From Octopus vulgaris (lineage: Eukaryota): a DNA stretch of 64,000 nt. Numbering within the stretch: the stretch's first letter is position 1; the number at the start of each line of letters is the position of its first letter. The notes beneath the pieces are model-generated. The model saw only the letters and a list, made by a program, of their open reading frames with translations, was not told where the DNA came from and did not search any database. This document shows, piece by piece, positions 1 to 63,578 of this stretch. The DNA lies in contig OX597814.1 of the NCBI GenBank assembly GCA_951406725.2, forward strand, positions 177,010,001-177,074,000. The letters are read 5' to 3'. The position numbers and the translations under genes are program-made.

Positions 1-665
1 GCATTGGATAAAATGCTTTGCAGTCCTTTTTTCAACTCTCTATGCTCTGAGTTCAAATACCACTGAGGTTGACTTTACTTTTCAACATTTCAGGGTTGAT
101 AAAATAAAGAACCAGTCAAATACTGGGGTCAGCATAATAGACTTGCTGTTCTCCCTCAAAATTGCTGGCCTTGTGACAAAATTAGCAAGAATTGTTAGTA
201 TCATTATTTTGTTGTTATTATTTCATAACTTTATAAGGTGGTGAGCTGGCAGAGTTGTTAGCACACTGGATGGAATGCTTAGCAGTATTTCACCTGTCAC
301 TATGTTCTGAGTTCAAATTCCACCGAGGTCGACCTTGTCTTTTATTCTTTTGGGATCGATAAATTAAGTACCAGTGAAACACTGGGGTCGATGTAATTGA
401 CTAGTCCCCTCCCCACCAAATTTCAGGCCTTGTGCCTTTATTAGAAAGGATTATTTCTCACCTTTATAAAGTGGTGAGCTGGCAGAACCATTAGCATGCC
501 AGGTAAAATGATTAGTGACATTTTGTCTGTCTTTAGACAGGTCTGCTTTGCCTTTCATCATTTCAGGTTCAATGAAATCAGTACCAGTTCAGCACTGGGG
601 TTGATGTAATCAACCAGTCTCATCCTCCAAAAGTTCAGGCCTTGCGCCTATAAGAAAAAGAATTA
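1..665 (+). mobile_element. Three adjacent decayed copies of a tRNA-derived SINE with a MetaSINE-like central domain (SINE family 2)
   Basis: Repeated GGTGGTGAGCTGGCAGA head, GTTCTGAGTTCAAAT B-box and GAGGTCGACTTTGCCTTTCATCCTTTCGGGGTCGATAAATTAAGTACCAG-like core; the same family recurs throughout the window. Confidence 0.8.
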
Positions 666-845: not shown

Positions 846-1103
846 TATCATCTTTTGTGAAAAGTAGAAGAGTCCAGTTTGCTGGACATTGTTGTTGAGC
901 TGAAAACGATGTAATTTCTACTCTTCTCCTCTGGAAGCCATCTGCTCGCAATACCAGAGGGCGCACACTCTCCTACCCTGATGTAATCTCCAGGGATACA
1001 GGCATCTAGCAACAGGACCTCTGTAATGCTATGATGGACCGTGAAGTCTGGCGTAACATAGTAAATTCCATTGTCTCGACCACGGTCGAACAATGATGAT
1101 GAT
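846..1103 (+). mobile_element. 3' end fragment of an RTE-clade LINE
   Basis: Translates as LSYPDVISRDTGI*QQDLCNAMMDREVWRNIV (RTE C-terminal DRxxWR motif) and ends in a (TGA)n tail. Confidence 0.65.
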
Positions 1104-1252
1104 CACTTCACTTAAGCAGCTGTTCAGAATTGAGGAAGAAAAAAAATCTATGAATGTCATCCAGTCGTTCCTTCTTAATAGATCAGTAGCCTTGGGCTTA
1201 AGTAAGAAATTATTATTATTATTTGAGTAGTATTAGTATGATAAATACATTA

Positions 1253-1636
1253 GGCGCAGCAGTGGCTGTGTGGTTCCGGGTTCAGTCCCACTGCATGGCA
1301 CCTTGGGCAAGTGTCTTCTACTATAGCCTCGGGCCGACCAAAGCCTTGTGAGTGGATTTGGTAGACGGAAACTGAAAGAAGCCCGTCGTATATATGTATA
1401 TATATATATATGCGTGTGTGTGTTTGTGTGTCTGTGTTTGTCCCCCTAGCATTGCTTGACAACCAATGCTGGTGTGTTTATGTCCCCGTTACTTAGCGGT
1501 TCGGCAAAAGAGATCGATAGAATAAGTACTGGGCTTACAAAAGAATAAGTCCTGGGGTCGAGTTGCTCGACTAAATGCGGTGCTCCAGCATGGCCGCAGT
1601 CAAATGACTGAAACTAGTAAAAGAGTAAAGAGAGTA
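1253..1636 (+). mobile_element. Octopus-type tRNA-derived SINE family 1, with an internal (TA)/(TG) microsatellite
   Basis: GGCGCAGGAGTGGCTGTGTGG-type head, GGGTTCAGTCCC B-box, AAGAGTAAAGAG tail. Other copies at about 2065-2425(-), 7505-7917(-), 11172-11582(+), 16085-16370(+), 21195-21637(-), 26950-27470(+), 36168-36555(-), 46840-47243(+), 53210-53895(-), 57050-57440(-), 57945-58790(+). Confidence 0.85.
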
Positions 1637-3128
1637 GTGAGATTTTATAAGCTTTTGTTTTTCTTTTTATGGACTGAACATACAAAATAATTTTGATCCA
1701 TTAGCTAGAACTGTTTCATAATAACATAAGTTGAATGTGAGTAAGCCTAGGAAGAGGCTGGGTACCACAAGGCATTAACTAATGCATTATAAAAGAGATA
1801 ACTGTGTTGATGCAGACATTTAACCCTTTTGAAACCAATCCACTTAGGACAGCCATTAGTTGTAGGGTTTTAAAGTGATCTGAATTCAAACCTCCCATTA
1901 AAATTTCATGTAAATTTTTTTCCATAAATATCAGTTTAAGAATGACAGTTATTATTTTACTAAAGCTTCCATTCTTTTCAAAATTAACTGAAACAAAGGT
2001 ATAGTATTTGGCAGAAATATGGTAGCAAAAGACTTAATGTAAATTGTTTTTATTTTTTATTTTCTTTTATTCGTTTCAGTCATTGGCCTGTGGCCATGCT
2101 GGGGCACCACCTTGAAGGGTTTTAGTTGAACAAATTGATCCTGGTACTTAGTTTTTTTTTTTAAAGTTTAGCATTTATTCTATTGGTCTCTTTTGGTAAA
2201 CTGCTAAGTTACGTTGGCATAAACAAACCAATGGCAGTTGTCAAGTGGGAGAAGAGTTGTAAACACACACACACACACACATGTATATATATATATATAT
2301 AATGGGCTTCCATGCAGTTTCTGTCTATCAGATTCACTCAAAAGGCACTGGTCAACTTGGGTCTATAGTAGAAGATACCCAAGGTGCTGTACAGTGGGAT
2401 TGAACCCCAAATATGTGGTTGCAAAGCAGATGAAATTAAAAGAAAAACATAATACAGAGTTTAGAGTACATGTGATAGAGGTAGCTAGAGCATGCCATCA
2501 TAAGAGGTTGAAGAGAAGAACAACATCCATAAAGTTACAGTATTGCAAAACTTAGCAAACAAATATATAAATGAGATTAATTGGCTAAAGAAATTTGTTG
2601 ATCGGAGCTCAGTTTGTGCAGTTGTCTAAACTATAGGATCTTGTAGATGATTCCTAGGGAAACTTTGCTGCTGCAAAATAATCCAGTGACCACATAGAGG
2701 TTCCCCCATTGGTTTAATCAATCTAATGGTTTAGTTTTCTTGCCTAAACTTTAGCAGTAATTCTAATACACTATTAAATTTCTCAATTGAATTGCTTACA
2801 GTCCTGAATTTGGATCCAGTTTCAGTCAGTCTCTTGTCTAATGCATTTAATAAAGTTCTGTTCCTTCAGTGCTAAATGAAGAGGTACATGTTGAGCTATT
2901 ATGTTTTGTGTAAGCCAATTTATCCTAGTACAGACCAAGTGCTAGCCAATTCTAATGATTTTTTTGCAGTATCTGTTAAAGATTTTAGGATTTCTATTCT
3001 GAAAAATCTAGCTTTTGTAAAAGCAGAAGTGAGAAAGATGTTCAAGTTGGTCATATTTAGAACTGCCTGCTTCCACAATTTGAGTATATGACTTATATCA
3101 AAGTTGCAAATTGGTGGAGCCTTTAGAG

Positions 3129-34496: not shown

Positions 34497-34730
34497 AAGG
34501 CGGCGAGCTGGCAGAAACGTTAGCACGCCGGGCGAAATGCGTAGCCGTATTTCGTCTGTCGTTACGTTCCGAGTTCAAATTGCGCCGAGGTCGACTTTGC
34601 TTTTCATCCTTTCGGGGTCGATAAATTAAGTACCAGTTACGCACTGGGGTCGATGTAATCGACTTAATCCCTTTGTCTGTCCTTGTTTCTCTCCCCTCTG
34701 TGTTTAGTCCCTTGTGGGTAGTAAAGAAAT
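34497..34730 (+). mobile_element. Young full-length SINE family 2 copy
   Basis: 16-bp TSD AATTGAGAGAGGGCAA at 34481-34496 and 34731-34746. Confidence 0.9.
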
Positions 34731-37062: not shown

Positions 37063-37790
37063 CCGGGCGAAATGCTGAGCGGTATTTCATCTGCCGCTAC
37101 GTTCTGAGTTCAAAGACTTTGCCTTTCATCCTTTCGGTGTCGATTGAATAAGTACCAGTTACGCACTGGGGTCGATATAATCGACTTAATACGTTTGTCT
37201 GTCCTTGTTTGTCCCCTCTGTGTTTAGCCCCTTGTGAGTAGTAAAGATATAGGTATTACGTCAGCCGCTACGTTCTGAGTTCAAATTCCGCCGAGGTCGA
37301 CTTTGCCTTTCATCCTTTCGGTGTCGATTGAATAAGTACCAGTTACGCACTGGGGTCGATATAATCGACTTAATCCGTTTGTCTGTCCTTGTTTGTCCCC
37401 TCTGTGTTTAGCCCCTTGTGGGTAGTAAAGATATAGGTATTACGTCAGCCGCTACGTTCTGAGTTCAAATTCCGCCGAGGTCGACTTTGCCTTTCATCCT
37501 TTCGGTGTCGATTGAATAAGTACCAGTTACGCACTGGGGTCGATATAATCGACTTAATCCGTTTGTCTGTCCTTGTTTGTCCCCTCTGTGTTTAGCCCCT
37601 TGTGGGTAGTAAAGATATAGGTATTACGTCAGCCGCTACGTTCTGAGTTCAAATTCCGCCGAGGTCGACTTTGCCTTTCATCCTTTCGGGGTCGATTAAA
37701 TTAGTACCAGTTACGTACTGGGGGCGATCTAATCGACTGGCTCCCTCCCACAAAATTTCGGGCCTTTTGCCTAGAGTAGAAAAGAATATT
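37063..37790 (+). repeat. Head-to-tail tetramer of the SINE family 2 body (184-bp period)
   Basis: GGTATT junctions at 37252, 37436 and 37620. Confidence 0.9.
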
Positions 37791-43281: not shown

Positions 43282-43544
43282 GCCATCTCTCTCTGAGGAA
43301 ACATCACTCTTGGAGCAAAAATAAAGCTTAAAAAGAAAATTTATAGATCTGCCAAGAGCGATTTGGATGTTCACTTTCAACAAGATAAAATAAACTGTAA
43401 ATCAAAACACACTCAAATATTACTAACATTCGTTAACATTCACGGTAAAAATAATTACAAACTTTATAAATACGCATTCGAGTGGCTAAACGGTAGAGCG
43501 ATGGGCGGTGTCTTTTTTTTTGTGTATAGGTGCGTCCCTTTAGA

Positions 43545-43958
43545 GGGCAGCGAGCAGGCAGAAAGGTTAGCACGCCGGACGAAATGCTTAGCGGTATTTC
43601 ATCTGCCGTTACGTTCTGAGTTCAAATTCCGCCGAGGTCGGCTTTGCCTTTCGTCCTTTCTGGGTCGATTAATTAAGTACCAGTTACGCACTAGGGTCGA
43701 TATAATCGACTTAATCCGTTTGTCTGTCCTTGTTTGTCCTCCCTGTGTTTAGCCCCTTGTGGGTAGTAAAGAAATAAGTATTTCATCTGCCGTTACGTTC
43801 TGAGTTCAAATTCCGCCGAGGCCGACTTTGCTTTCATCCTTTCGGGGTCGATAAATTAAGTACCAGTTGCGCACTGGGGTCGATATAATCGACTTAATCC
43901 GTTTGTCTGTCCTTGTTTATACTCTCTGTGTTTAGCCCCTTGTAGGTAGTAAAGAAAT
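43545..43958 (+). mobile_element. Dimeric SINE family 2 insertion
   Basis: Two bodies joined at the GTATTTC junction, flanked by one duplication ATAGGTGCGTCYCTTTA; a similar dimer lies at about 44478-44870. Confidence 0.85.
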
Positions 43959-44999
43959 AGGTGCGTCTCTTTACATTCTGAATTCAAGTTCGTTCGCGTC
44001 GACTTTGCCTTTCATCCACCCTCTGTCGCTAAAATAAAGAACTAGAGAAATACAAAGCGACTTGCTCCGTCTGGCGACTTACTCCATCTGGCATCGTGCT
44101 TACGTCAGAACGGATTTATGTACGGCATTAACTATATTAATAACAATCTATGGCAACGTCTGCAAAAAATTCCTAGATATCATTTCTTCAACAGCCGTTC
44201 ACCGACGAAAAAACAAAAAAAAATAAAATAGGCAGTGAATTAGGAACCTAATTTGTCTATCGTTCTATGTTAAACAGGCTTAGCGCATAACATTTTATCT
44301 TAAAAATCCTTTCAGAATTTTATCAACGTATTTCACCGAGCTTGACTTTGCTTTTTATCCTTTCGTGTCGATAAAATAAGTACCAGTTGAAGATTGGGAT
44401 CGATATAACCGACTTACCCCCTCTCCCGAAATTACTGGCCTTGTGCCATAATTTTAAACCAATATTTTATCATATTAAGGCGACAAGCTGGCAGAATCTT
44501 TAGCACGCCGGGCGAAATGCGTAGCCGTATTTCGTCTGCTGCTACGTTCTGAGTTCAAATTCCGCCGAGGTCAATTTTGCCTTTCATCCTTTCGGGGTCG
44601 ATTAAATAAGTATCAATTACGCACTGGGGTCGATATAATCGACTTAATCCGTTTGTCTGTCCTTGTTTGTCCTCTCTGTGTTTAGCCCCTTGTGGGTAGT
44701 AAAGAAATAGGTATTTCGTCTGCCGCTACGTTCTGAGTTCAAATTCCACCGAGATCGACTTTGACTTTCATCCTTTCAAGGTCGATGAACTAAGTACCAG
44801 TTAAACACTGGAGTCAATGAAACCGACTGTCCCCATCCCTAGAACTTACAGGTCTTATGTCAAAATTTGAAACCAATATTTTATCAACGTTTTCACATTT
44901 ACAAAATATAATTTTGGGAATAATAAATATTTACATTTTCTTATTTTTTGAAATCTTTATCAAAACTACTTTATTAATAAATTGGCATCAGTGAATACG

Positions 45000-46365: not shown

Positions 46366-48550
46366 TAGGCTCTCTTAAATATAGAACTGTATTACTACCG
46401 GAGAATTTTCTTCTAGCTCAGTGGCTATGTGTAAAATCCCAGAAATAATTGGTGTGATTTTGTTTTTCCTTTTTCGCTCGTAGTCTACTATAATCAATAT
46501 TTTAAAAAATTGTTTTTACAGCTTAGAGGAAGGAAGGAAAAGTCCATTAGCTTTTTCAAGGGTGCGGAGTTTGATGGGAGGAGGGAAGTTATTTTCAGAT
46601 TGAAGATGTAATCCAAATGCTTACATTACGGCACCGAAAGGCCAGGTAGTGGCGTTAAACCGGGCGACTGGTTATCTCTACCAGTCAAGAACAGGAAAGG
46701 TTACGCCTACAGGCTTATACATAGTTTCTGTCTGATAAAAATCCTTGCGTCTGATAAAATTGTTGTGGCCCTTTACGCTCTGAGTTAAAGTCCCGTTGAG
46801 ATCGACTTTGTTAGTTATCTTTCCGGGTTCAATAAATAAGGCGCAGGAGTGGCTGTGTGGTAAGTAGCTTGCTAACCAACCACATGGTTCCGGGTTCAGT
46901 CCCACTGCGTGGCATCTTGGGCAAGTGTCTTCTGCTATAGCCCCGGGCCGACCAATGCCTTGTGAGTGGATTTGGTAGATGGAAACTGAAAGAAGCCTGT
47001 CGTATATATGTATGTATGTGTGTGTGTGTTTGTGTGTCTGTGTTTGTCCCCCTAGCATTGCTTGACAACCGATGCTGGTGTGTTTACGTCCCCGTAACTT
47101 AGCGGTTCGGCAAAAGAGACCGATAGAATAAGTACTGGGCTTACAAAAAGAATAAGTCCCGGGGTCGAGTTGCTCGATTAAAGGCGGTGCTCCAGCATGG
47201 CCGCAGTCAAATGACTGAAACAAGTAAAAGAGTAAAGAGAGTAAGTGTCAGATAATTACCAAAGTCAATGTAATCTACAATTTTCTCAACCACAAAAATA
47301 TCTGGCTTTTTGCCTGTGTAAGAAACCCACTTTCTTCTCCATTCAGAAAAAATAATCCACTTCTTCCTAGTCGAGAAATAATGCTTTCATGATACGATGC
47401 CGATTGTTTGGACCTTCTTCGCTTCTCTGTACCTTACCTATAAGAGATGCATTCGATTAGTCTCAACTCATTTACGTGCAAGAATAGTCCTCCAGCTTTA
47501 ACTTTCCTGTGATAATCATTTTAAATACTACGTTTACTATCCAGTCTTGGCTCATTCTGAGCGTGACTCAACTATTCGAGCAGCAGGCGATTTAATCAAA
47601 GGACAGAAGTATTAGATCCTTTTTCGCGGTACAGCTCCTCATTTGACTCTTTGTTGTGCCAGAAAATGTGACAAAGTTTTCTGGAAAACCCTTGTGGAAA
47701 GCATTTGTCTTATTGATATCTCATTGTGACACACGCTAGCATTCTGAGCCATGCAGTAGCAACGTTGAATAAAGTATATTCGTGTAAACTTATTCTTAAC
47801 ACGTTTGAGCACATTCGTCCGATTTTATTTACTTAACTCTAGTTCGACCAAGCTTTACGTACACCAGCAAGCGTACAATATACTGTTCTTATATAAGAAT
47901 AAATTTATTCTTATCAGGCTACGAACGACAGATTTGGTGTTCGAAGTTGATGACACAGAAGAACGTAGAAACTATGCGTCCTACAATCCAATTCACTGTG
48001 CAATATTTACATCATTCACCGTGCAATATATATTTTGACGCATATTGTCTAATAGCAGAATTTTCTCCTGGAACTATTTCCTCAGCGAAAGGTCTCCACG
48101 TGCGAATGTCCTCAAGATGCTAAATATGACTTTATAGTGAAGGGGTCACCAGTATAGTGAAATTGGTCACCAGTATAGTGACCAACTTCACTATGCGAAC
48201 TGGCAGAAACGTTAGCACGCCAGGCGAAATGCTTAGCGGTATTTCGTCTGCCGCTACGTTCTGAGTTCAAATTCCGCCGAGGTCGACTTTGCCTTTCATC
48301 CTTTCGGGGTCGATAAATTAAGTACCAGTTACGCACTTAATCCGACTTAATAACCGACTTAATCCGTTTGTCTGTCCTTGTTTGTTCCCTCTGTGTTCAG
48401 CCCCTTGAGGGTAGTAAAGAAATAAGTATAGTAACTGTCCTGGGTCACCAGTATGGTGAGTTCACTATCTTCGTAGCTATTGTGAGAAACTAAGTGAAGG
48501 AACTCAAGCATGGCCGCAGCCACATTAAATAAGTGACAATCGGATGTAGT

Positions 48551-48606
48551 AGAGGGAGCCTGTTAGAGGGAGCCTGTTAGAGGGAGCCTGTTAGAGGGAG
48601 CCTGTT
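48551..48606. repeat. Perfect 14-bp tandem repeat x4 (AGAGGGAGCCTGTT)
   Basis: Direct reading of the sequence. Confidence 0.95.
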
Positions 48607-49717
48607 TATTCGGCCAATCACAGACCGAATAGAACTGTAAACTTAGTGTCGTCTGAGTCTACTTTGAGATTAAAAATGTACGTGTTCACTAATGCTTGTA
48701 CAGACAGGCTACAATTTTACGCGAACATATTTTATTCGATGCTGTTTTGTGCAATTCTTTCCTATGTCGACGAATATTCAGTCTTGTTCGTTTATTTAGT
48801 GATTCGTTCATCCATATTTCGGTAGGTATGGTGACTGCTATACTTCACTGATTAGGTCAAAATAAGAACGAAACCTGCTTAGTGTTGTCTGCCGTGCTTT
48901 CCTGGAAAAATGAAAATAAAATGTTAGACATTAATATCGATTTACTTTACCTCACCGCATATTTATTCCTTACTAGTATATATTGAAATGTTCTCTGCAT
49001 TAATTATGCTAATACATCTACAGTTCTCTCTCTTACTTACCCGTCAATATTTGTCATGCTATAGTATCTCGTCATTGCATGTAAATTTGTAGTTAATTGA
49101 GGATTGAATATTTACAATAGTAACCTGCAAGTTTCCAAGTACTTTGTACATATTCAACGACTTAAACCATTGAGCGAAATCAATATCATAACTTAAGGTT
49201 TCCATATAAATGAAACAAGCTCGAGTTCTACGTTTACAAAACTCTTAACACGAAAGGGAATCTGAGATATAATCGAAATACATAAGAAACTACAGCAATA
49301 TTATAAAGATCTCTAGATTTATGCACAAAGAAAGAATATTTATAAAACGTAGAGTTTCCACGGATTCCGCTACGTTTTAATTATTAATACATTTGCATTA
49401 GACTTCCAGGGGCTGCTTAGCTTAATGCCATAGAACACTCAACTGATATCTGAGAGGTTTCTCTGTAATCACCTGCTGACAATTTTTTTTAAAAAAGGCT
49501 GTGAGATGACAGAATCGTTAGCACGCCGAGCAAATTGCTTAGCGATATTTCTTCCGACTTTACGGTATGAGTTCAAATCCCACCGAGGTCGACTTTGCTT
49601 TTCATCCTTTCGGGGTCGATAAAATAAGTACCAGCTGAGTACTGGGGGTGATGTAATCAGCTTACCCCTCCTCGAAATTTCTGGCCTTGTGCCAAAATTT
49701 GAAACCAATATTTTAGC

Positions 49718-58115: not shown

Positions 58116-58164
<49 letters not shown>

Positions 58165-58170
<6 letters not shown>

Positions 58171-58522
58171 TATTGAGTTTCTAAATGTCTCAAAGAGACA
58201 TGAGCGGTGGTGGAGCGATAGAGTGGTTGTATACTGTCAACATAACGTGACAGTCCCGTAAGGGAATTACACCACCGCAATTTAGCCCTAGGAAGCATCG
58301 ACGCTTCCTGTCGGCTTTGACACATTTCCTGTGTCCTTATATTTGCGAAGGGGAGGCAAGCACCCCCACCAGCTAGGGCTAGCACTTAGGTGCCTCCCCT
58401 TCGCAAGTATAGGGACACATCAAATGTGTCAAAGCCGACAGGAAGCGTCGGTGCTTCCTAGGGCTAAATTGCGGTGGTGTAATTCCCTTACGGGACTGTC
58501 ACGTTATGTTGACAGTATACAA

Positions 58523-58529
<7 letters not shown>
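58165..58529. mobile_element. Fold-back insertion of a highly structured repeat (family A) inside the microsatellite of a family 1 SINE
   Basis: 139-bp inverted arms 58220-58358 and 58391-58529, about 5 mismatches, 32-nt spacer. Confidence 0.85.
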
Positions 58530-58614
<85 letters not shown>

Positions 58615-60061
58615 TGTGTGTGTGTGTGTTTATCCCTTCCCAACATCGCTTGACAACTGATGCTGGTATGTTTACGTCCCCGTAAGTACTAGACTTACAA
58701 AGAATAAGTCCTGGGGTCGATTTGCTCGACTAAAGGCGGTGCTCCAGCATGGTCGCAGTCAAATGACTGAAGTAAGTAAAAGAGTAAAGAGTTTAGGTTC
58801 AAGACCTGAGATTTTTGGTAAGGGTCTAGTCAGTTACATCGACCCCAGTGCTCAACTGGTACTGATTTTATAGACTACGAAAGGATGAACGAAAGAGCTC
58901 GATGAAATTTGAACTCAGTAAGCACAAACGGACGAAATATCGTTAAGCATTTTGTCCGGTACGTTAACTATTCTGCCAACGCGCTGCCTAGAATGAACAA
59001 TAATAATTCTTTCTAGTTTAGGTTCAAGGCCTGAAATTTGTGAGGAGGGGGTCAGTCTATTGCATCGACCCCAGTGTTCAACTGGTACTTATTTTTTTCG
59101 ACTCCGAAAGAATGAAAGACAAAGTTAACCTCGTAGGAATTAAAACTTAGTACGTAATGACGGACGAAACGCCGTCATGTATTTCGTTCAGCGTGCTAGC
59201 GATTCTGTCAACTCACCACCTAGCATGAGCAAAATTATGGAATGACATAGACTTGTTAGTTGTTTAACCCTAGGCCATCTCTGAATGAAATGATGTATGA
59301 TCGAAGGTATTCCAGTCATGACCATTCTGTCATTTTATATATCAAAGACAAAATTGTCTAAAGCATTTTTTCTTTAATGTTTTAAAAATAAAATGGTGTG
59401 TGTAATTTCAAGGAATTTTTGCTTCATAATTCTGGTTGGTCGAACCAGCACGTAGAGGGTTCTTCTTTTGCCCAAGGAATAGAAAAAGATAGCTCGGAGT
59501 TAATCGACAAGGCCATCACCATCATCCCCCTTAGCAGCACTAGTCACAACAGCAGCAGCAGTAGCAGTAGCAGCGGCAGCAGCAGCACCCCAACCCTACT
59601 CCCACCTCCACCACCACCAACTTAGACAATAGCTACAACAAAGATAAGAAATGGAGAATAACAATAATAACATATTTAACATTGGCACATCGCCATTTTT
59701 TTTTTTGTTTTAGTGGGGAAAACGCCGTCAGTGAAATGTGAATCAATTTCAGTACTTGACTGGCGCCATTATATTACAGGATTTGAAGTCGGAACCTAAA
59801 GATATACATTCACTATCGCGTGGTTGCCTCGTATCTCCCATATTTCAGATACTATTATTGGTTTTTCACACCACTTCAGCTGGTCGTCTGAGACTAATCA
59901 CAAAGCATTGCTGAATAACCGCTCGAATCCGCTCAGAATAAGACATCACATGCCCATTGTCTCATATCAAACGCTGTATGGTGATTTTCTTGCAATGTTG
60001 AGTCCCTGCCACCCAATGCATTCGTATCTTAGGGCTAGTATCATTTCAAAGACTTTATATT

Positions 60062-60602
60062 TAAAATAGAAAATTTTTATTTGTAAATCTCTCAACGAGA
60101 GTCATTCAGTAACAGTACTGTAGAGTAAAGATTATTTGCCAACATAATGTGGCAGTCCTGGTTTAGGACGAATGTTATTGCTATTTAGCCCCAGGAAACA
60201 TCATCTCCAGCTGGCTATCCGACACACTATCCGTGTCCAGATATTTTCGAACAAGGGAGTTCAGCACCCCCACTCAGCACAGAACAATATCTATGTATCG
60301 CGATATCTGGGTTATTTCCCTTCATCAGCACAGAATAACTGTTCGGCTAGAGGTGGCGCTGCTAAATTCTTGTTCGAAATATATAGTTTTCAAAGTGACA
60401 CAGAGTCATTGATTTAATAAAATAGAAACCAGGATTGCCACATTATGGTGGCAAATAATCTTTACTCTAGAGTACTGTTACTGAATGTCTCTCGTTGAGA
60501 GATTTACAAATAAAAATTTCTATTTTATTAGATCAGTGTCTGTGTGTCACTTTGAAAACTATATATTTCGAACAAGAATTTAGCAGCGCCACCTCTAGCC
60601 GA
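60062..60602. mobile_element. Structured repeat family B with a hammerhead-like motif (60292-60332, -) and nested inversions
   Basis: Homologous to family A; inverted pairs about 60062-60165/60427-60527 and about 60345-60428/60516-60602. Minus strand: TGTG-CTGATGA-A-GGG-aaataa-CCC-A-GATAT-CGCG-ATA-CATA. Confidence 0.75.
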
Positions 60603-61110
60603 TAAAGCAGTACTGAAAGAGCGTGTATGGAGGACTCGAATGGAAAGTTTTGTGACAGGGTCCTTCGTCTCCGGCCCCAGTTTGCTATATTACTTCATAT
60701 ATCATCTGAAGAGCAAGATGGGGTTGGAGAGGAAGACCCTGCCACCGAGTGAATACGGAAAACGATAGAAGGATGTGATGAGAAAGGTCGGTGTCAGTAA
60801 CCCAGCTTAATCATCGAAGAAAGGAAAATACTAGTTGCTGGACATTATAGGCTGCCGGGTTTAGTTTTTGAACCTGCTATCCCTTTCCCTTTTATTACCA
60901 TATGTTATGATCTCTAGTTCTAATGTTAAAAAACCCCACAAAAGTTCTCGTTTTCAAGGCAAAAAAGTAAGTCAATTATTCGTTTATTTCACATCATAAT
61001 TAAATTTTTAAAAGTTTCATTCGAACTCATATAAAATTTTTGTATTTGTTTGTCTTGTTATGTCCTTTTCTATGTTCGATCTCATGATCATAATAAAGAT
61101 TTTACCTCAA

Positions 61111-61315
61111 GCCGATGAAGAGAAATAACCCAGACATCGCGAAACACTGATATTGTTTTGTGCTGAGTGGGAATGCTCAAATCCCTGGTTCGAAAATATA
61201 AGTACACAGACACTGTGTCGTATAACCAGCCGGAAACGATGTTTCCTGGGGCTAAATAACAGTAACATTCGTCTTAAACCAGGACTGACACATGTTGGCA
61301 ATAATCTTCACTTTA
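61111..61315 (+). mobile_element. Another copy of family B, inverted relative to 60130-60332
   Basis: CCGATGAAGAGAAATAACCCAGACATCGCG...GGAAACGATGTTTCCTGGGGCTAAAT...AAACCAGGACTG. Confidence 0.8.
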
Positions 61316-63578
61316 TATTTAGCGTGTAAGAAATGGTTAAATACCTTTCTGACCACCAGTAGGTCGGCTAACAGTGACTTACATAACATGTCTCTTCTAG
61401 TTTATCAATTGATTCCATCTAGTTTAATACTTTCTGATATTAGCTTCTCATTAAAACTAAGCGATTGTGTTCTAATATTACTTTTCAACCCAACCTCAAA
61501 TTTATTAGCATGATGACTTCAATAGAATCCGCTTAATTAATCCGCTTGCCGTCGGCTATCTATGTAAGAAACTACACCCTCAGTTTCTTGTTTTGAGGAC
61601 GGCTGCTTAGAAGTTCTGTGTTGATTATACAGACCACAAGCTTGTGGTCTGTGTAGCAAACTTGACAAAAATGTGTACCACTCTACGCTATCCAGATCCA
61701 CTAATCTAATAAAGTATTATATCTAAATATGATCTGGTTGATCTGTTCCGAGTTCTTCAAGTTTACTTTGGCACGTTCGAGGAAAACGTTCGAGAAAGAC
61801 ATTCCAGTTTGTTAAACAGTTGATGTCTGGATGGGTTTGAGAGTGTTTGCACCTTCCTCTTTTAGTCTTCCAATAGCAATAATTTGCTTGAAGAAGTTTT
61901 GTCATGTTGACCCACCAGGGCGGTTTGGCCAGTGCACTGCATTGTGTACTGCCTATGTCTAACATCATCAACCTGTCAGTGATATTCAGAAAAATTGTCA
62001 GTTATATTAAAAGAAAATTGTCATTACTTCGAGATCCAGGCATTCCTGAAACAACAATGATATCCACTTAATCTGCACTGAATAAACAAGGAACAAACCA
62101 CATAATCATTCACAAAATGAACAAGTTCGAGTGATAAGAAACGGTGTATTTTTGAGGATTATAACTTCTAGATTTAAAGAGGATTATAACTTCTAGATTT
62201 AAAGATACTCCCAGCTCATGCATATTTATACAATCAAATCTTGCCAGTGAAAGGGATGCTTATCTGGAACTGAGACTTCATCGGAACCCCGAAGACTGGT
62301 CTGAAAGCTCAAAGATTTTGAATACAAGAATACACATTTTATTAGTGGGTATAATCTTTGACTGGACAGGTAAATATTTTGTTGATCGTAGACTGATGGA
62401 AGATAAAGTCGACGAGTTGTATTTGAACAGAGAGCTAACGAACCTGAAGAAGTTTGATCACCTGATCTGTTTGGGAAACTCAACACGATAAAAATTTTGT
62501 CCAAAGATCTTAAGCTCTAAATCATATCTAAGTTAGGTACAAACCCATAAATTTAGGATAAGGGGTGTGGTCGATCTATCGATTCCAGTACTTGATTTAC
62601 ACATCTTCATTGATCTGAGAAGGGTGAAAAGTAAATTCATTTCATTGATTTTAGAAGCAAAGTAAAGCTCGAGGAGATTTGAGCACAGAGTGTAAAGGGG
62701 CGTAATTAAATACCACAAGATATTTTACCCGACGCAATACTGATTCTGCCACGTACCGCTCTTAATATCAATGATTATTGTTTCTGATATAGGCAGTACA
62801 AGGTCAGAAGCTTTGAGAAGGAATAATATAGACCTCAGACCCTTTCTTGACTAGTGCTTTTTTTTTTTATCTATCTTGGAGAGATGAAAGGAAAAGTTAA
62901 CCTCTGGGGAATTTGAACTCAGAAAGTAAAAATACAAGATATTTTGTCCGATGCAGTCCACTGCCCTTGATATCAACAGTGAAGAGGAGCCAACGGGAGG
63001 GCTTCAGATTGGTCGCTTGATTTGCTAGAAATAGTAGCCCAATCTCTCATCCAGTTGTCTTAAGAAAAGGATGGCACTGGATAATGTAAACACACTGTAT
63101 GAAGAATAAACAAATAAAACAAAGAAAGCAAAGAACAACCAAACCAAATTTGACAGGAAAGGTTCTGGCTGGAATGCCTTTTGGCCATAGACCTGATCTG
63201 CAGTAAACAACTAAAGCTACAACAGCAACAACAATAACAACAACAAAAATGATTCTTTACATTATATATTACTGCTAAGATGGTGAAGTGGCAGAATCGT
63301 AGTGGTACTTCGCCCGTTGCTACCTTCTGAGTTCAAATTCCGCCGAGGTCGACCTTTCCTTTCATCCTTTCGGGGTCGATAAATTAAGTACCAGTGAAAC
63401 ACTGGTACTTAATTTATCAATTATTCTGCTTCCCATAAACTTCCAGGCCTTCTGCCTATAGGTGAAAGGATTATATAATACTGCTGCTGCTGCTGCTGCT
63501 GCTGTTGTTGTTGTTGTTAAGCAACAAGACGGGTAAGGGTGATTAGGTGATGGTCAAGGGCTTAGGGGCGGGAAACCC

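Follow-up and report, generated by a model that had tools for sequence, protein, structure and literature searches.

A covarying RNA fold with two fixed insertion ends in octopus non-LTR retrozymes: a candidate recruitment signal for a Penelope-like reverse transcriptase

Retrozyme insertions in the octopus window

The window, a stretch of 64,000 nucleotides from Octopus vulgaris contig OX597814.1, holds two insertions of a dispersed repeat, one belonging to family A and one to family B of the same element. A multi-helix structure of unassigned class had been predicted from the sequence at 58181-58345, with counterparts in family B. The features of both insertions are as follows, in window coordinates.

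58164..58385, minus strand: family A arm 1, a 5'-truncated retrozyme (family positions 1-223) from which the truncation removed the hammerhead
58164, minus strand: outer end of family A arm 1, equal to site 1 and adjoining a (TA)n run
58164..58186, minus strand: site 1 region, the fixed outer end, with a terminal hairpin in A; placed by the end common to 30/30 A loci and by the fold; putative first reverse transcriptase (RT) start
58187..58199, minus strand: GTCTC/GAGAC hairpin between both sites, CTC...GAG in all 11 subfamilies
58204..58278, minus strand: multibranch arm, a long-range helix (58204-58212 with 58270-58278) enclosing two hairpins and the site-2 segment; placed by covariation
58213..58224, minus strand: site 2 region (TAGAGT), the second fixed insertion end; placed by insertion ends and folds; putative second RT start
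58235..58252 and 58254..58265, minus strand: the hairpins enclosed by the long helix, TGTCA/TGACA and TCCC/GGGA respectively
58284..58316, minus strand: two-helix arm, AGCC/GGCT and an inner helix, the most sequence-conserved part of the domain
58319..58335, minus strand: GACAC/GTGTC hairpin; placed by covariation and fold
58391..58536, plus strand: family A arm 2, the inverted arm of the insertion of arm 1 (positions ~50/55-196)
58536, plus strand: outer end of family A arm 2, equal to site 2 and running into a (CT)n run
60063..60416, minus strand: family B arm 1, a complete unit of 353 nt from site 1, with the domain at ~60084-60240
60285..60335, minus strand: type I hammerhead of family B arm 1, core from 60328, predicted inactive
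60427..60602, plus strand: family B inverted arm with a tandem junction (positions 280-353, then 1-101)
60603..61104, plus strand: 3' fragment of a Tx1/L1-like LINE with an AATAAA, inserted in the B unit with an 11-nt overlap and lying outside the domain
61105..61316, plus strand: family B arm with a degenerate hammerhead and the domain as far as site 2 (positions 59-266)

The repeat that hosts the domain is almost certainly a non-LTR retrozyme with a type I hammerhead, given that the type I core is present in all seven full-length families. By every feature tested it is a retrozyme of a known kind, and families A and B are two of its subfamilies. The genome (2.8 Gb in 227 contigs) is rich in SINEs and microsatellites and contains thousands of retrozyme copies; a genome search gave 2528 first-look candidates for family A, 4604 for family B, and 1073-3043 for each of four further families, and a search pattern built on a single arm of the fold, with no match to family A, had 5299 exact genome matches against 0 for its reversed control. 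At least 11 subfamilies were distinguished, which is a lower bound: families C, D and E were chance finds in 20 regions, F was found afterwards, and four more subfamilies came from 40 small loci. Majority sequences were built from 15-70 segments for each of the seven main families, whose domains are 52-92% identical in pairs, and from 3-5 copies for each of the four other subfamilies (one copy being counted in two groups). The tandem unit measures 351-360 nt across subfamilies and ~352 nt in A and B, and head-to-tail units were found. When 30 A and 30 B loci were aligned, one end of the repeat was sharp and fixed and the other variable, and partial tandems and inverted arms were frequent. SINE-like repeats, both dispersed and in a 184-nt tandem, are also present in the window (235-439, 34497-34701, 37069-37736, 43544-44826, 48189-49699 and 63300-63474).

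The retrozyme unit is non-coding and too short to encode an RT, and a tblastn search with two Neptune proteins (E 1e-3) gave no match in the window or in the retrozyme loci. The transcript check covered assembled contigs only, from runs without an RNA record; two of these are host transcripts crossing another copy. In metagenomes the domain pattern had 0 matches, and the four stretches that match a hammerhead-like pattern (L290-L293) lack the domain.

The hammerhead-like motif noted beside the family B domain is a type I hammerhead; that of family A had escaped the original prediction. The core (CUGAnGA), stem II, GAAA, stem III and stem I are all present in 7/7 full-length family majorities, with the core variant U3-A8 in C, the youngest family. 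Stem III is short and mostly palindromic, which suggests that cleavage may need a dimer or the aid of a protein. The hammerheads in the window are damaged: the family A copy stops ~6 nt short of the cleavage site, and core changes are present in each of the family B copies, with GATA in place of GAAA in arm 1; the family majority core is canonical.

In each unit the hammerhead lies on the strand opposite to the one on which the structure was described. The fixed end marks the beginning of the cDNA, and the template is therefore the hammerhead strand. By hammerhead polarity and the geometry of fixed and variable ends, the RNA corresponds to the complementary strand of the one described, which is the minus strand at 58181-58345. 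Counts of G-U wobble pairs barely favour the hammerhead strand in the domain (11 versus 9) and lean the same way in the whole unit (23 versus 16) and in the 11-subfamily analysis (19 versus 11); these counts are weak and the choice of strand does not follow from wobble alone. Single-sequence folds of A, C and E are equal or better on the strand originally described, and the alignment energy of the whole unit is -86 kcal/mol on the hammerhead strand versus -69 kcal/mol on the opposite one.

A covarying fold across diverged families

There is very little doubt that the structure of the domain is real. The two window families align at 72-75% identity over 72-102 nt, and the hairpins, the long-range helix and the AGCC/GGCT arm with its inner helix all occur at the places predicted for A, with counterparts in B. 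RNAalifold applied to a sequence-only alignment recovered these helices on either strand, with an energy z of about -12 by column-shuffle comparison, and two Watson-Crick types were seen in 22-23 of 45-46 pairs against 7.2-7.5±2.5 (maximum 14) in 150 column shuffles. The proposed covariation between diverged families was borne out in 14 real copies of the seven families, where 87% of 611 cells pair and 21/44 pairs change on both sides, a count equalled by 0/500 shuffles and compared with 6-11 in slid controls, and on a tree of the 11 subfamilies, where 30 mappings gave 16-21 same-branch double changes and a further one gave 15, compared with nulls of 9.2±2.3 (maximum 17 in 3000) and 6.5±2.2 (maximum 15 in 5000); because these sequences had also served to choose the structure, the 14-copy and tree counts are somewhat inflated, and misregistered helices deflate them. 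A measure of further pair types in the 14 copies gave no excess over shuffles. Covariation was judged by shuffles, slid controls and a tree-aware null rather than by R-scape statistics. In the long helix 6/8 pairs change on both sides. The same helices appear in independent folds of the seven majorities, and topology, helix lengths and spacings are kept across families of 52-92% identity. Fold z-scores in the window are -5.95 for the A copy and -2.18 for the B copy.

Several details of the prediction did not hold. Double changes occur in 0/4 pairs of the closing stem, which in A is in competition with the terminal hairpin, and the supposed GNRA loop varies inside A (GTAA, GTAT, GTAAA, GTAGA). 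TAGAGT and ACATAAYG, described as conserved, occur only in A and B1 among the 11 subfamily majorities; the third motif said to be conserved and unpaired, TAGCCCYAGG, is indeed widespread (9/11 subfamilies) but is mostly paired. The AATAAA placed 3' of the domain is a private variant found in 2/30 B copies and 0/7 majorities, and the one near 61092 is part of the inserted LINE. Few unpaired bases of the domain are invariant over the 11 subfamilies. A pseudoknot scan found no helix of at least 4 bp confined to unpaired columns, and its single loop-loop candidate, rich in GU, was not supported.

The view that the structure fits no known RNA class agrees with the Rfam searches, in which the domain matched no family, SECIS, IRES and ribozyme models included. 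Among the best 150 of 206 matches for the whole 64-kb window none overlaps the domain, and a search of 58150-61400 with Rfam 15 gave 16 matches at E<=10, all under the gathering score and mostly miRNA models on inverted repeats.

The original prediction lacked two structural features: a small hairpin in the TAGAGT region, and further helices across the rest of the unit. The whole unit covaries, in 56-60 of 100 pairs against 16 in shuffles. Family positions ~190-350 (window 60250-60416) form a covarying long rod with the hammerhead at its end, and the stem of a short hairpin immediately 3' of site 1 exists in four sequence versions.

Two fixed insertion ends within the fold

Insertions of the retrozyme end at two places relative to the fold. 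Site 1 is its 3' edge. Site 2 is located 42-58 nt further in, where the small hairpin of the TAGAGT region has its loop, or next to that loop. It falls in the loop of a 4-bp hairpin in five subfamilies (B1, B2, D, E and F), and in C at the edge of a shifted hairpin; in A it occupies the homologous unpaired position, with no hairpin and a larger scatter (50-61). The structural position of site 2 is constant while its sequence changes.

Among 170 distinct insertions, 101 are direct and 69 are inverted with both outer ends facing out. One site 1 end and one site 2 end are combined in 44/69 inverted insertions; the 25/69 outside this pattern comprise 18 with site 1 and an end elsewhere, 4 with site 2 and an end elsewhere, 2 with neither, and 1 with site 1 twice. 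Site 1 is enriched in this set because the locus queries begin at site 1, whereas site 2 was not selected for. A second set consisted of 44 arms at 40 loci, hand-picked among the first 100 central-motif matches listed; 14/44 arms end at site 2 (11 of them at one base), 12/44 at site 1, 3 are tandem-internal, and 15 end elsewhere, a few just outside the site-1 window. The excess at site 2 in this set has p ~4e-6 against a flat expectation. Both insertions in the window follow the two-site rule, with ends at 58164 and 58536 in A and at 60063 and 61316 in B.

(TA)n adjoins 60/149 site-1 ends and 22/58 site-2 ends, and junctions, those at site 2 included, frequently have 2-4 nt in common with a (TA)n or (GA)n flank. 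Non-majority variants are shared more within an insertion than between insertions in 6/7 families. The B arm at 61105..61316 has 21/204 differences from the majority and is more diverged than the other arms, and may originate from a different template. Taken together, the insertions display a fixed 3' end, variable 5' truncation, an inverted arm, a one-sided tail, and microsatellite or AT-rich targets, all of which are hallmarks of Penelope-type insertion. The end positions tell where cDNA joins the target, and not what role the remaining fold has.

A candidate signal for a Penelope-like reverse transcriptase

Non-LTR retrozymes have been proposed to be non-autonomous derivatives of Penelope-like elements (PMC7229834; 10.64898/2026.07.22.740005). 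Insertions of the latter go into (TA)n targets and have inverted arms, with a tail of 30-40 bp on one side (Craig et al. 2021, PMC8557442). In vitro, the Poseidon protein cuts and extends both strands with a preference for ATT, and its RT begins at two internal starts in a stem-loop downstream of the hammerhead, the stretch between them being the genomic tail (Frangieh et al. 2024, PMC11167929). The two-end pattern of the retrozyme insertions matches this tail and these starts, from which we infer that the fold is the cis signal of a borrowed RT. On balance, the fold is probably a cis-acting RNA module on the hammerhead strand, through which the retrozyme RNA recruits a Penelope-like RT and offers it two sites for priming. 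Of the four roles first suggested for the structure, RT recruitment fits best, given the insertion ends at two fixed places in the fold, and nothing supports an IRES or a new ribozyme, since the unit is non-coding, a hammerhead core is already present, and few unpaired bases are invariant.

Under the proposed mechanism, tandem retrozyme copies would be transcribed and the hammerhead would release monomers, possibly circularised as is known for other retrozymes. A Penelope-like RT/GIY-YIG protein would bind the fold and cut both strands of AT-rich or (TA)n DNA; one DNA end would then prime at site 1 and its partner at site 2, aided by base pairing with the loop over 2-4 nt. Both cDNAs would extend toward the hammerhead, stop at variable points, and be joined; the product would be two inverted arms, just one of which carries a 42-58 nt tail. 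Where priming occurs only once, direct, 5'-truncated or partial-tandem copies would result.

Another use of the fold, considered unlikely, is that it mainly compacts the (circular) RNA, making it nuclease-resistant and leaving the hammerhead free, with the starts set by small local hairpins only. The covariation of the whole unit, in the proportion given above, is what such a role would produce, retrozyme circles have been described as highly self-paired (PMC7229834), and Neptune elements have two ends without such a large fold. Generic stability would nonetheless hardly demand that topology, lengths and spacings be held across 52-92% identity, nor that one arm be conserved in sequence too. 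Still less probable is a structure acting at the DNA level, either in single-stranded cDNA of the strand originally described or as a cruciform, that would serve as an endonuclease recognition or resolution signal with site 2 as its cut site. The tail has been ascribed to endonuclease resolution (Craig et al., PMC8557442), the Penelope tail of D. virilis is cited as needed for endonuclease recognition (in PMC11167929), and the wobble counts leave the strand undecided; against this, both tail ends map in vitro to RT starts (PMC11167929), the nucleotides shared between site-2 junctions and their (TA)n or (GA)n flanks are those that priming predicts, and the alignment energy of the whole unit prefers the hammerhead strand. 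A separate activity is very improbable, be it as an IRES, as a new ribozyme, or in binding a host protein for RNA-to-RNA replication: it would suit a multibranch fold with one sequence-conserved arm and no Rfam match, but invariant unpaired bases are few, no pseudoknot is supported, no reading frame follows, and the element ends are unlike an extra cleavage site, both being target junctions.

No autonomous element with the domain was found in the loci examined, which counts against the RT-recruitment reading. Neptune-type elements are abundant in the genome, with many intact 781-aa frames; the clade name is presumed from the CxxC linker and the C-terminal GIY-YIG layout. Searches with PF01541 and RT segments returned only Neptune-type families. 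The covariance model of the domain, run on the element ends at 34 GIY-YIG loci, gave no match with E below 0.9, no Penelope-like coding sequence occurs in the window or any retrozyme locus examined, and no RT and GIY-YIG frame lies upstream of the repeat, as a pLTR would require, in the examined loci, which are the top-scoring Neptune-type loci only. A partner may still exist, since the sampling covered only these. The window segment 61330-62150 was considered as a Penelope ORF and rejected, its relatives being decayed APE-type LINEs and Pfam finding nothing; on the minus strand it is a decayed LINE APE-endonuclease region that adjoins the site-2 end of the B insertion. One Neptune-type family (L147 1445-3790; ~150 loci among the matches listed) is very young, with a U3-A8 hammerhead and (TA)n targets. 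Neptune elements resemble the retrozyme in the type I hammerhead near the 3' end, the (TA)n targets, the U3-A8 core shared with family C, and, in one family, an optional 38-nt tail (5/20 ends) whose CTC...GAG hairpin is like the one that separates sites 1 and 2 of the retrozyme; they differ in having only ~75-115 AT-rich nt after the hammerhead and no covariance-model match.

In their non-coding tandem units and single type I hammerhead, the octopus repeats are like the metazoan non-LTR retrozymes, whose units in mussel are 350-390 bp (Cervera & de la Pena 2020, PMC7229834; Li et al. 2026, 10.64898/2026.07.22.740005). They are unlike those described in that most copies are dispersed partial or inverted insertions. 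The accessible text of the same two papers gives single-sequence folds only, with no covarying domain and no end mapping. The insertions also resemble the Penelope pLTR and tail, and PAc Poseidon in particular, in 5' truncation, partial tandems, an inverted arm, a tail at one end, AT-rich or (TA)n targets, and two internal starts 3' of the hammerhead (PMC11167929; PMC8557442). In PAc the region lies in the ORF start and forms an AC-rich stem-loop with a 30-40 nt tail (PMC11167929; PMC8557442), whereas the octopus domain is non-coding, with eight helices, a longer tail of 42-58 nt, and no ORF-bearing partner found. No description of the domain was met in the literature on retrozymes, Penelope-like elements, and octopus hammerheads and repeats, covered mostly as titles and abstract openings, with Repbase and most subscription papers outside; the accessible part of the octopus repeat annotation (PMC13282606) mentions no hammerhead, ribozyme or retrozyme. 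The retrozyme families may already have been named, for example in Repbase, and the supplement of PMC7229834 may list related elements; the conserved domain with its two mapped ends is apparently undescribed.

Only one Penelope-like element has been reconstituted (PMC11167929). The octopus domain bears on RNA recognition by the RTs of these elements and on the cause of their inverted insertions with a one-sided tail, as it is a compact, non-coding, covariation-supported RNA with two natural predicted start sites mapped to the base. With at least 11 sequence versions at hand, compensatory-mutation tests can be designed directly. The ends also provide insertion-level evidence for retrozyme mobility by the Penelope route, which previously relied on co-occurrence and homology. 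If portable, the fold could direct cargo RNAs to a Penelope-like enzyme.

Telomerase RNA is a structured RNA that presents an internal template start to its RT and uses short primer pairing. The domain would be analogous to it for an RT of a telomerase-related lineage, though it differs in having no pseudoknot found, no repeat addition, and no sequence or Rfam match. A more ambitious reading, offered tentatively, holds jointly that the domain is a dedicated telomerase-RNA-like loading module with two template starts for a dimeric enzyme priming both strands of a double-strand cut, which would explain inverted pseudo-LTRs and one-sided tails across the class, and that a Tx1-like LINE has specialised on retrozymes.

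The LINE in question is a Tx1/L1-like element of ~5.1 kb (ORF1 knuckle, APE and RT) which, together with a 1.68-kb ORF1-only derivative, lies within retrozyme units in four families (A, B1, B2 and D). Insertions were seen in the window (60603-61104) and at L006/L246, L034/L248, L203/L249, L027/L121, L020 and L041. Target preference is known among Tx1 elements (PMC4494074), and the LINE is possibly a retrozyme-targeting element or one captured by template switching. The insertions share one homologous site, ~10-30 nt 5' of the hammerhead core, and are all oriented with the hammerhead strand; overlaps measure 7-20 nt in 5/5 loci where both junctions were seen, and 7/101 direct retrozyme segments end in such a LINE.
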